DNA from: Octopus vulgaris
Taxonomy: Eukaryota
Direction: 5' to 3'
NCBI GenBank assembly: GCA_951406725.2
Contig: OX597815.1
Span: 174,406,001-174,470,000, forward strand
Length of the DNA: 64,000 bases
Under the pieces are notes generated by a model. The model worked only from the letters and a program-made list of their open reading frames with translations, was not told the origin of the DNA and did not search any database. Positions 35,101 through 36,850 of this stretch are shown here, in pieces; the first letter of the stretch is position 1, and the number at the start of each line of letters is the position of its first letter. A program made the translations under genes and the position numbers.

Positions 35101-36850
35101 ATTGTTAAAAAGTTGAAGGAGTTAACTTATGGATGACTTTTATTTTCAGGTTCCAATCGTACCAGTTATCTTTTCGTCATTTCAACCATTTTATAGCAAA
35201 AGCGAAAAAAAATTGGAGCCTGGTAATTATACTTTGAGTTTTTTCAAAATTGAAATGATTTTTAGCTTAGAGTTGCTTCATAATTATTGAGCATTCTTTC
35301 ATAGGCTTGTCATAAAAAATCCTTGTTTCATTTGTGTAAACTACTTAAATTTTATATTTGCTCAGCATTTTACTGGTTAACAAAGATTTGCTGCTAGTAG
35401 TAATACAAATAAATGTCATAAGTAGGCATGAATTTGAAATTTAGTTTGTATTGTCAGATTTAGCCATTTCACTTCACTTATCTCATTTATGCTCTTGAAA
35501 ATGTCTGACATTTTCATACAAACTATAGGCTTTCAGCTCATTTGGAGAAAGCAGCAAGAAAATCTTCTAGTATGGTTATATAACTGATGTCATGTCAAAT
35601 CTGGCTACAATGGAACTTAATCTTCTCCCGAAAGACAATGATAAGAAAGTAATAAAATATACTATCAAGTATTAGAGTTTACTTCAACTATGATAACAAA
35701 TAGCTGATGCAATAGTTTATATATATTATATAATGGACTTTTTGTATACAATGAACTACAACTCATCAAAAAAAAAATGACCAAACCTGCATGAACAGTA
35801 CTTAGAATATACACAGGAAGTGAACAGTAAATAAGTCTTTTAAAAAAAATGGAGTAAGGGGCATCAAGTGTACTGTAGGCGGATTTTAGGAAGCATGGAG
35901 GTTTTGAAGAATATTTGTATTAATTTCTTAATTAGTGAGTTTTGTTGCATTGTAATATGAGAGAAAATAAAAAGCTTCAATAGATGTTTGAAGTTTAACT
36001 GGAATGGGGTTTTTTTCTTTTTTTTTTTTTTTATAATCAGAATATATTCTAGCTTTTGTTTTCTTCATAAAAGAAAATTAGATGCACTCTAACCTTTGAC
36101 AGCATAAATATTTTAGCTAATGTGGGATCTATCCTTTTTCTTTTATTTGTACTTCTGTTTCTTATCCCCCCCTCTCTCTCTCTCTCTCTCTCTCTAATCT
36201 AGTAACATGGCAGAGAATACTGGTTGTCTAATATAGTTTGAAATAGTTCATGCTTTTTAAATGCACTGTTTTAAATATTCACTTCATTTTGAAAATATAT
36301 GGGCAAATTCAATGTGTTATTTTCATTCTGCTCTCTTTTTATTTTCTTCCTTTTGTTAACTATAGGTAAATTTATCATTACTATCCTACCTCCGACCCCA
36401 ACAACTGGTCTGAAATCAACAGATGTCAATGATTTATGTGAAAAAATCCAAATTCAGATGGAGAATGTCTATTACAAAACTTCCCATGAAGTTTCACCTA
36501 TTGTTTTCGGCAGTTCAAATACTTCAAAGGAGAAACGACCCTTATCAGTGTCACCAAGTTCACTGACTGATTCTGGAGGATTAGGAGTCTTAGAAAGGAT
36601 TGAAGAAGAGTCTGCTGAGACTAATGTAGAAACAATCAGTCCAGATGTTAGCACAAAGGAAGAACAGAAACTACATGCTGACAGAATTAGAGAAGCAACA
36701 GTTGCTGATGCACATGTTACCATGGGGAAAATAAATAAAAGTAAACAAACTGAAAATACAGAAGAATTAGCTCAGAAAATTGTGGCAAAGACAGTTAAAG
36801 AAGCACAGGAACTTGTAAAAGCAAATTCTTTCAAAGAAGCAGAAAAATGA
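14099..36850 (+). CDS. AGPAT1: 1-acyl-sn-glycerol-3-phosphate acyltransferase (LPAAT alpha/beta-like), spliced CDS join(14099..14235,28649..28824,28937..29032,35150..35222,36366..36850); 5' coding exon not identified
   Basis: Five exons with canonical AG/GT boundaries and compatible phases. They encode acyltransferase motifs I-IV (NHQSSLD, GTIFIDR, FPEGTR, VPIVPV) plus PFKKG. Assignment to AGPAT1 versus AGPAT2 is not resolvable; it is probably a co-ortholog. Confidence 0.93.
14800..15950 (+). mobile_element. hAT (Charlie/SPIN/GTF2IRD2-like) transposase relic
   Basis: Eroded motifs [24 protein letters not shown] and YFYELRNE in broken frames; boundaries approximate. Confidence 0.5.
18228..18598 (+). 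mobile_element. 3' end of a second CR1-type LINE with (TAAC)n tail
   Basis: Encodes [14 protein letters not shown]...LRGHSEKL...[13 protein letters not shown]; tail at 18573-18598. Confidence 0.8.
19639..19853. mobile_element. piggyBac-like MITE (~215 bp)
   Basis: CCCTTTAGCATTTA ... TAAATCCTAAAGGG|TTAA. Confidence 0.7.
20501..20843 (+). mobile_element. tRNA-derived SINE with 9-bp TSD
   Basis: A box TGGCTCAGTGG, B box GTTCGATTCC, TSD AATATGTCA at 20492-20500 and 20844-20852; related heads at ~1349, ~6530, ~27841 and ~31812. Confidence 0.85.
26701..26924. mobile_element. Penelope-like insertion with internal inversion and 14-bp TSD
   Basis: Direct repeat ATTATATAAATATT at 26687-26700 and 26925-26938; ~35-bp inverted arms at 26700-26735 and 26834-26868; related sequence at 42070-42215. 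Confidence 0.55.
27841..28105 (+). mobile_element. tRNA-derived SINE
   Basis: Same head as 20501; the 3' part matches 1475-1550. Confidence 0.75.
28140..28503 (+). mobile_element. Abundant retroposon 3' module ending in GACGTTAAAC(GAT)n
   Basis: GGAGTGGTTGGCGTTAGGAAGGGCATCCAGCTGTAGAAAC...CCATGCTAGCATGGAAA; other copies at ~11210-11612, ~17150-17350 (-), ~29630-29795, ~33953-34120 (-) and ~53300-53470. Confidence 0.8.
28649..28824 (+). CDS. AGPAT1: AGPAT exon with motif II
   Basis: Acceptor tattctag|GT and donor CAG|gtacat; 176 nt; encodes [59 protein letters not shown]. Confidence 0.93.
28937..29032 (+). CDS. AGPAT1: AGPAT exon with motif III
   Basis: Acceptor tttctcag|ATT and donor CAG|gtatgc; 96 nt; encodes [32 protein letters not shown]. 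Confidence 0.94.
29924..30310 (+). mobile_element. Non-autonomous Helitron
   Basis: 5' TC, 3' GC-rich hairpin CCCGAGCAACGCCGGG followed by CTAG, inserted between A and T with no TSD; internal ~100-bp tandem duplication. Confidence 0.8.
30141..30777. repeat. Long near-perfect inverted repeat (palindrome)
   Basis: Arms ~30141-30447 and ~30463-30777 are reverse complements around a (TA)n spacer. Confidence 0.95.
30773..31228. repeat. Compound (TA)/(GA)/(GATA) microsatellite
   Basis: Directly visible low-complexity tract. Confidence 0.95.
31229..31620 (+). mobile_element. Second SINE family with internal (TA/TG)n and (GAGTAAAA)n tail
   Basis: GGCGCAGGAGTGGCTGTGTGGTAAG...GGTTCAGTCCC head; other copies at ~16196-16584, ~26015-26411, ~33840-34905 (split), ~48390-48766, ~54960-56605 (-, split by mariner) and ~56875-57250 (-). 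Confidence 0.85.
31812..32136 (+). mobile_element. tRNA-derived SINE, CpG-rich young copy
   Basis: A and B boxes (TGGCTTAGTGG, GTTCGATTCC); the body matches 6600-6820. Confidence 0.8.
32574..32766. mobile_element. piggyBac-like MITE, opposite orientation
   Basis: TTAA on both sides; CCCTTTGGTATTCAGATTAC start. Confidence 0.65.
34252..34810 (-). mobile_element. 3' end of a CR1-type LINE with (ATT)n tail, inserted in a SINE
   Basis: ORF 34303-34683: PYSERL...TRGHIYK...[14 protein letters not shown]. Confidence 0.85.
35150..35222 (+). CDS. AGPAT1: AGPAT exon with motif IV
   Basis: Acceptor tattttcag|GTT and donor G|gtaatt; 73 nt; encodes [24 protein letters not shown]. Confidence 0.92.
36366..36850 (+). 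CDS. AGPAT1: AGPAT last coding exon with long acidic/Ser-rich C-terminal extension
   Basis: Acceptor aactatag|[34 protein letters not shown] matches the AGPAT C-terminal fold; the frame stays open to TGA at 36848-36850. Confidence 0.88.

Follow-up and report, generated by a model that had tools for sequence, protein, structure and literature searches.

An apparently coleoid-specific C-terminal tail of Octopus AGPAT1/2 with a predicted PP2A-B56 docking motif and a candidate PKA-anchoring helix

Introduction

Scaffolds that hold both protein kinase A (PKA) and protein phosphatase 2A (PP2A) are known, mAKAP among them. The helix of A-kinase anchoring proteins (AKAPs) spans 14-18 residues, with a binding face at positions 2, 5, 6, 9, 10, 13, 14 and 17 that includes L9, V10, A13 and I14 in AKAP79 (PMC12083921), and the PP2A-B56 motif is [LMFI]xx[ILV]xE, in which L1 and I4 are preferred and acidic or phosphorylated residues at positions 2, 7, 8 and 9 strengthen binding (PMC10970375). 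In the membrane protein ADAM17, a PKA-phosphorylated tail is dephosphorylated via an LxxIxE motif (PMC7327492), and in an AKAP1/PKA/GPAT1 signalosome of mouse liver, AKAP1-anchored PKA inhibits GPAT1 (PMC12062205). Here we describe a 118-residue C-terminal tail on the acyltransferase AGPAT1/2 of Octopus vulgaris, encoded in a 64,000-nucleotide stretch of contig OX597815.1 (assembly GCA_951406725.2, positions 174,406,001 to 174,470,000, forward strand), hereafter the window, to which all coordinates refer. A first-pass annotation of this DNA had proposed that the tail may be a kinase/phosphatase scaffold.

We suggest that the tail is a docking arm of coleoid AGPAT1/2 in which a B56 motif and a terminal helix would both bind, the helix having the type II regulatory subunit of PKA (RII) as its partner. 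This combined reading is the one we favour, although we hold it tentatively, at somewhat less than an even chance.

Results

The gene in the window is an Octopus AGPAT1/2 (lysophosphatidate acyltransferase). P0004, which NCBI names AGPAT alpha and which is annotated in both O. vulgaris and O. sinensis, matches five exons of the window by tblastn over its residues 63-384, and its residues 1-62 have no tblastn match in the 64,000 nucleotides. The full protein scores 115.5 bits with Pfam PF01553 (cut-off 23), and its core has the HX4D, FIDR, FPEGTR and proline-rich VPIVPV blocks that define AGPAT1/2 (PlsC) membership. An AlphaFold2 model from a 104-sequence alignment has a mean predicted local distance difference test score (pLDDT) of 85.9, with the core above 90, and its top fold match is T. 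maritima PlsC (5KYM, E 6.5e-11, template modelling score 0.77 on the target). Hydrophobic segments lie at about residues 6-52 (peaks at residues 6 and 34), in keeping with the PlsC fold, and none is found in the tail. Since these segments are N-terminal, the tail is probably on the catalytic, cytosolic side, and together with the family assignment they point to an endoplasmic reticulum (ER) location for this predicted lysophosphatidate acyltransferase.

Past the conserved core end, the forward frame runs on without a stop for 118 codons (36494-36847, residues 267-384), after which a TGA follows at 36848-36850. This agrees with the first-pass annotation, which had also held that stop codons are otherwise frequent here: the remaining two forward frames contain 7 and 12 stops across the tail, and 118 open codons are expected by chance with a probability of 1e-4 to 6e-4 at local stop densities and were met in one of 20,000 base shuffles. 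The tail is Ser/Thr-rich (24 of 118 residues) and purine-biased (62%), as had been stated, and acidic only mildly (21 Asp and Glu against 17 Lys and Arg). The three motifs named at first pass occur in the order given, with KRPLSVSP at 36533-36556 and LERIEEES at 36590-36613, followed by the AKAP-like helix.

A tail of this kind could be a near-neutral read-through of a former 3' untranslated region (UTR), or an artefact of the gene model, with motifs arisen by chance. Transcript contigs speak against this. We compared contigs of runs X1, X2, X6 and X13 (four of 23 runs, from four studies) over 27500-40500; the runs are presumed to be RNA, and the contigs count as spliced transcripts because of their GT..AG joints. 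Three such joints, linking the last four coding exons, are present in all four runs, and in each of them 36365-36850 is a single contig piece with no other letters and no gaps. In these contigs the stretch 36366-36850, for which the first-pass annotation had proposed a check of RNA-seq coverage without an internal splice, is unbroken. No donor-like site scored above threshold within 36366-36850 by a crude score, and a minor short isoform may still exist, since contigs drop rare forms.

All five coding exons lie on the forward strand. The exon at 14097..14237 (boundaries approximate; about residues 63-109, with NHQSSLD) matches P0004 at 98% by tblastn, and its own PF01553 match (E 7e-4, 19.8 bits) falls below the cut-off of 23. 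It is followed by 28649..28824 (residues ~109-167, with FIDR), placed by contig pieces, a GT..AG joint and splice sites, and by 28937..29032 (with FPEGTRN and PFKKG) and 35150..35222 (with VPIVPV), each placed by contigs, splice sites and tblastn. The last coding exon, 36366..36850, holds the core end, the entire tail and the stop; it is preceded by a pyrimidine tract and AG and is 100% identical to P0004 residues 224-384. In all four runs, the contig records with the tail extend to 40298-40500. By their coordinates, 7 letters intervene between 36850 and 40298. This is what an exon beginning at 40291, directly behind TTTCAG, would give, and it suggests a GT..AG intron at 36851..40290 (forward strand) and a non-coding 3' UTR exon at 40291..40500 that runs past 40500. 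The TGA would then form the final three bases of its exon, with a 3.4 kb intron directly after it and a non-coding last exon beyond.

The tail is confined to a narrow set of homologues. A full-length search gave 2044 hits, of which the best 120 were examined. The three best are an Octopus/Argonauta cluster, P0003, and a cluster including Sepia pharaonis (P0003, P0256 and P0257 were grouped by identity), and the O. bimaculoides, Argonauta and cuttlefish-cluster orthologues retain the tail. The other 117, from bivalves, gastropods, an annelid, insects, fish (including fish AGPAT1/2) and unnamed records, run past the core by a median of 10 residues and a maximum of 74, none reaching 100. Neither a strict LxxIxE nor the helix face was found in the 12 of the 117 that continue for at least 30 residues past the core. 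Likewise, a profile of the tail searched against 1.84 billion representatives returned three proteins, all orthologues, and no donor protein for the tail. In this sampling, which is without Nautilus and Vampyroteuthis, the tail looks coleoid-specific and appears to be older than the octopod-decapodiform split. That split dates to ~270 million years ago. The simplest origin is the loss of an ancestral stop codon within the same exon, because the tail shares its exon with the core end and has no homologue outside.

Unrelated AGPAT1/2 tails of 51-74 residues that lack these motifs occur in rotifers, dipterans and some unnamed homologues, namely P0074, P0076, P0119, P0105, P0107, P0103, P0108 and P0109. 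AGPAT1/2 tails have likely been gained more than once.

One orthologue model, the S. pharaonis GenBank protein P0125, lacks the tail, as a near-neutral tail or a model artefact might lead one to expect. Its match to the core breaks off 15 residues short of the tail, and its final 20 residues are different. However, 15 of these are compatible with a +1 reading of the 15 residues that close the long cuttlefish tail (at most 7 in 300 shuffles), and comparison with P0127/P0129 reveals that what is skipped is exactly the part that bears the motifs. Since the end of P0125 is a +1 reading of the tail end, the S. pharaonis genome likely encodes the tail, and P0125 is either a prediction artefact or a genuine tail-skipping isoform. 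The tail is carried by the other 7 of the 8 cuttlefish-cluster members, these seven all coming from run assemblies.

Conservation within the tail is gathered in islands. At the deepest split among eight aligned tails, the tail is 45-51% identical and the core 78-80%; this faster divergence, with a net loss of 14 residues in Argonauta, is what a near-neutral tail would show. Yet the reading frame is kept in 8/8 tails (104-127 residues in length), and the spacing from motif to helix is constant in three of four checked, the exception being Argonauta, which has the deletion. Invariant columns number 29 of 118 overall, compared with 7/8 in LERIEEES, 4/5 in ETISP, 10/16 in helix 2 and 2/8 in KRPLSVSP. 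Best-window permutation gives p values of 0.015 for the B56 motif and 0.022 for helix 2, which are optimistic since the eight tails equal about 2-3 independent lineages. Thus, of the three motifs that the first-pass annotation had proposed to check for being conserved islands in a divergent tail, LxxIxE and the helix behave in this way and KRPLSVSP is at background. Taken together, the spliced contigs, the retained frame, the islands and the P0125 end largely refute a near-neutral or artefactual tail, which we consider very improbable.

KRPLSVSP (36533..36556, forward strand) is best described as a linker that is rich in Ser and includes a small basic patch, unconserved as a motif. Its counterparts are KRTLPVIP in Argonauta and KRPLLVSP in P0257, the serine being lost in both, and the RxxS of KRPLS is unconserved among the eight tails. 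As a kinase site it was ruled out on its 2/8 invariant columns against the background of 29/118. Two features go beyond the first-pass annotation. One is a second copy of the helix, in tandem with the first; the other is an ET(I/L)SP island (36626..36646, forward strand; 4/5 columns invariant), which lies 5-10 residues past the B56 motif and is likely a proline-directed phosphosite. This island is probably not a PP2A-B56 target, because proline-directed sites are disfavoured by PP2A-B56, whose preference is for basophilic ones (PMC7327492).

The predicted PP2A-B56 docking motif, LE(R/S)IEEES (36590..36613, forward strand), is present in 8/8 tails, with P3 as its sole variable position. It fits the known determinants, having L1, I4, E6, acidic residues at P2 and P7, and Ser at P8. 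In shuffled tails, a motif of this best type arises in 0.05% and a strict LxxIxE in 5%. The disorder prediction suggested at first pass holds for the first half of the tail: residues 275-299 and 305-318 have pLDDT below 50, and the motif region, at about 40-46, is predicted disordered and conserved above its flanks (p 0.015); beyond it, helices are predicted at 321-349 and 353-383. A small basic patch (KEKR/ERR) ~18 residues upstream is a modest match to the one ~15 residues away described in PMC7108865. B56 binding to LE(R/S)IEEES is a fairly probable prediction.

Helix 2 (36755..36808, forward strand; pLDDT about 88-93) is an AKAP-like amphipathic helix that is predicted to anchor PKA-RII. 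With its register set on L9/V10/A13/I14 of AKAP79, its face reads T-L-A-I-V-T-V-A, and across the tails this (T/A)-L-A-I-V-T-V-A face is invariant at 7/8 positions against 3/10 non-face positions (Fisher p 0.023), with a hydrophobic moment of 0.37-0.58. Four decapodiform-type tails carry a second copy 31 residues upstream with the same L-A-I-V-T-V-A face and a moment of 0.24-0.48. The corresponding helix 1 of Octopus (36662..36715, forward strand; moment 0.09) is a degenerate AKAP-like copy with His and Arg on its face; the three octopod tails that have it share His5 and Arg10 and a moment of about 0.1, and at the DNA level the Octopus copies match at 28 of 54 bases. Argonauta has deleted helix 1 and kept the face of helix 2, so that the partner of helix 2 is not helix 1; an intramolecular hairpin of the two helices is thereby ruled out as the cause of conservation. 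RI-selective AKAPs carry F/Y-A at helix positions 1-2 (PMC12083921). The aligned tails lack F/Y-A there, having N/Q/S/R and T/A, and any preference would therefore be for RII over RI. We consider it probable that helix 2 binds some docking/dimerization (D/D) domain.

The helices could instead serve oligomerisation, a lipid-synthesis partner, or contact with membranes or lipid droplets, with LERIEEES as an acidic trafficking or kinase patch. Repeated amphipathic helices of lipid enzymes often bind membranes. The helices here are long and confidently predicted, and conservation reaches E5, S8, E10 and ET.SP, beyond the B56 contacts. Against this, the face consists of small residues without aromatics, with a net charge of 0 to -3, a composition that fits membrane-inserting helices poorly; hydropathy windows within the tail peak at 0.39; helix 2 is unaltered where helix 1 is deleted; and variation at P3 contrasts with the invariant L1 and I4. 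We regard this alternative as unlikely.

Helix 2 was also modelled with its proposed partner. No named cephalopod RII was found among the 120 hits listed or among the members of eight RII clusters, and Aplysia RII was therefore used as a stand-in. This is reasonable because the RII D/D N-terminus (first ~40 residues) is nearly constant across the molluscs listed. Tail residues 82-116 were combined with two copies of Aplysia RII 1-44, beside three controls and with our own alignments unused. The complex scored 0.34 (runs 0.33-0.36), at the mark, against 0.06 for the best control, on a scale uncalibrated for peptides and disordered chains; contacts agree by at least 91%, and partner pLDDT is at least 65. 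The support that this lends to RII binding is weak and shifts the odds only slightly, and structure predictions of such complexes require experiment (PMC11367651).

Several points, besides the few independent lineages and the tailless S. pharaonis model, weigh against the PKA-RII and B56 reading. Of 78 solved pairs, 51 reached the mark, as did 2 of 108 mismatched ones, but at scores of 0.60 or below it was reached by 5 of the 78 solved pairs and by all four passing mismatches; AKAP-RII complexes having been solved, the score may reflect memory, and the RII partner came from a gastropod. The Thr13 and Gln18 of helix 2, invariant in all eight tails, are atypical. An older RII consensus has a small aliphatic residue at position 13, and no tail matches it. 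The Thr-tolerant face pattern was written after the sequence had been seen and also matches 15 of the 117 other AGPATs and 2 of 120 RII proteins. No match to the tail was found in the Pfam RII-binding family, and none that was usable in the ESM Atlas. A talin AKAP helix (h50) identified in silico was not the real binding site (PMC10990152). A [RK][RK]x[ST] site is absent from five of six full-length orthologues, Octopus included. For the B56 motif, the loose pattern occurs in 35% of tail shuffles, so its presence is weak evidence and the argument depends on conservation; P5, a position without contact, is likewise invariant, which is compatible with a plain acidic patch.

Other searches pointed to no AKAP either: the Pfam matches to the tail, among them Hydantoinase_A and Ribosomal_L12_N, fell below their cut-offs and were set aside as hits to helices in general, and PDB sequence searches with helix 2 and the tail profile gave chance hits only (E 0.26 or worse). 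The sole [RK][RK]x[ST] site among the six proteins is the RRIS of Argonauta. It stands at residues 334-337 of P0006 (Argonauta hians), at the site of the helix 1 deletion and a short way upstream of helix 2.

Some of these observations would be explained if the B56 motif were real and the helix bound a non-PKA D/D protein (DPY-30-, ROPN1- or SPA17-like) or another groove partner, the tail then being a phosphatase-docking adaptor and not an AKAP. Helices of the AKAP type are known to have further partners among D/D proteins (PMC12203939), the atypical Thr13 and Gln18 are invariant as if fitted to a different groove, and the PKA consensus site is absent. On the other hand, the RII prediction, weak as it is, stands above control, and the face spacing and small aliphatics match the AKAP positions. 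We judge this alternative rather unlikely, though worth serious consideration.

The rest of the window is AT-rich, transposon-laden animal DNA. Reverse-strand exons of a V-ATPase subunit G gene, convergent with AGPAT, lie at 47122-47355 and about 62690-62776 (PF03179, E 2.4e-6, 28.5 bits against a cut-off of 28.6); the frame with the N-terminal MASQSAGIQQLL... is one that we take to be this subunit. Forward-strand remnants comprise a long interspersed nuclear element (LINE) reverse-transcriptase frame at 8679-9833 (PF00078) and a mariner-type transposase frame at 55509-56174 (PF01359). Further transposon-like fragments and high-copy repeats fill the introns.

Discussion

In the docking-arm reading that we favour, a predicted-disordered linker would present the LxxIxE motif to PP2A-B56 and the terminal amphipathic helix would bind the PKA type II regulatory dimer, with AGPAT1/2 anchoring kinase and phosphatase at the ER membrane. 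After loss of the ancestral stop, the helix would have been duplicated, and the two anchoring sites, kept in decapodiform-type orthologues, would have been reduced to one in octopods. The anchored pair would more likely act on neighbouring ER proteins, or on non-canonical linker serines, than on the catalytic core, because a canonical PKA site is absent.

The first-pass annotation went further and proposed that cAMP signalling is coupled directly to lipid synthesis. With no canonical PKA site in five of six orthologues and KRPLSVSP unconserved, the sequence does not support this, and it is improbable that PKA directly sets AGPAT1/2 activity. A broader version, in which an ER phosphatidic-acid synthase, with a built-in AKAP that arose de novo in coleoids and a PP2A-B56 site, forms a cAMP switch on membrane-lipid synthesis, seems unlikely to us but conceivable. 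Such a switch would tether PKA-II holoenzymes, two in cuttlefish-type orthologues and one in octopods, and the possible tail-skipping splice form of cuttlefish would be its off state.

AGPAT, the AKAP helix and LxxIxE are each known; their combination here is restricted to a single clade, and binding is predicted. No published description of a cephalopod AGPAT docking tail was found among open-licence papers, judged mostly by title and abstract start, and the available parts of PMC3682517, PMC12329089 and PMC4963476 hold nothing decisive for the tail. If binding is true, a lipid-synthesis enzyme would itself be a kinase/phosphatase scaffold, and the dual-helix AKAP would have an independent invertebrate origin. 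The intact, decaying and deleted helix copies of living species would then form a natural series that bears on how anchoring helices originate and on the tolerance of Thr at the core of the helix face.

Comparison with known systems places the octopus protein beside AGPAT1/AGPAT2 (LPAAT alpha/beta), with which it shares the PF01553 domain, the conserved blocks and the PlsC fold. It differs from these relatives in the tail with its conserved islands, 104-127 residues long in coleoid-type orthologues against a median of 10 in the 117 other homologues, and the longest other AGPAT tails (at most 74 residues, in rotifers and insects) lack both motifs. With AKAPs, it shares an amphipathic helix of 14-18 residues, the face positions, tandem helices, and the acquisition of an anchoring helix, here a predicted one, by a protein that already existed (PMC12083921, PMC12203939). 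Unlike them, it has no sequence homology to any known AKAP and carries Thr13 and Gln18, and its binding is a prediction. Since dual-helix AKAPs have been placed at the vertebrate base (PMC12083921), the molluscan helices would be of independent origin. The PP2A-B56 interactors BubR1, Cyk4/RacGAP1, KIF4A and the ADAM17 tail resemble it in L1, I4 and E6, in acidic P2 and P7, in Ser at P8 and in disorder, whereas the octopus motif belongs to an enzyme of lipid synthesis and has an AKAP-like helix as its neighbour. Finally, the AKAP1/PKA/GPAT1 signalosome offers a parallel in which anchored PKA acts one step upstream in the glycerophosphate acyltransferase pathway. There, however, a mitochondrial protein distinct from the enzyme provides the anchor and the enzyme serves as substrate, whereas the octopus enzyme, which lacks a canonical PKA site, would itself contain the anchor.

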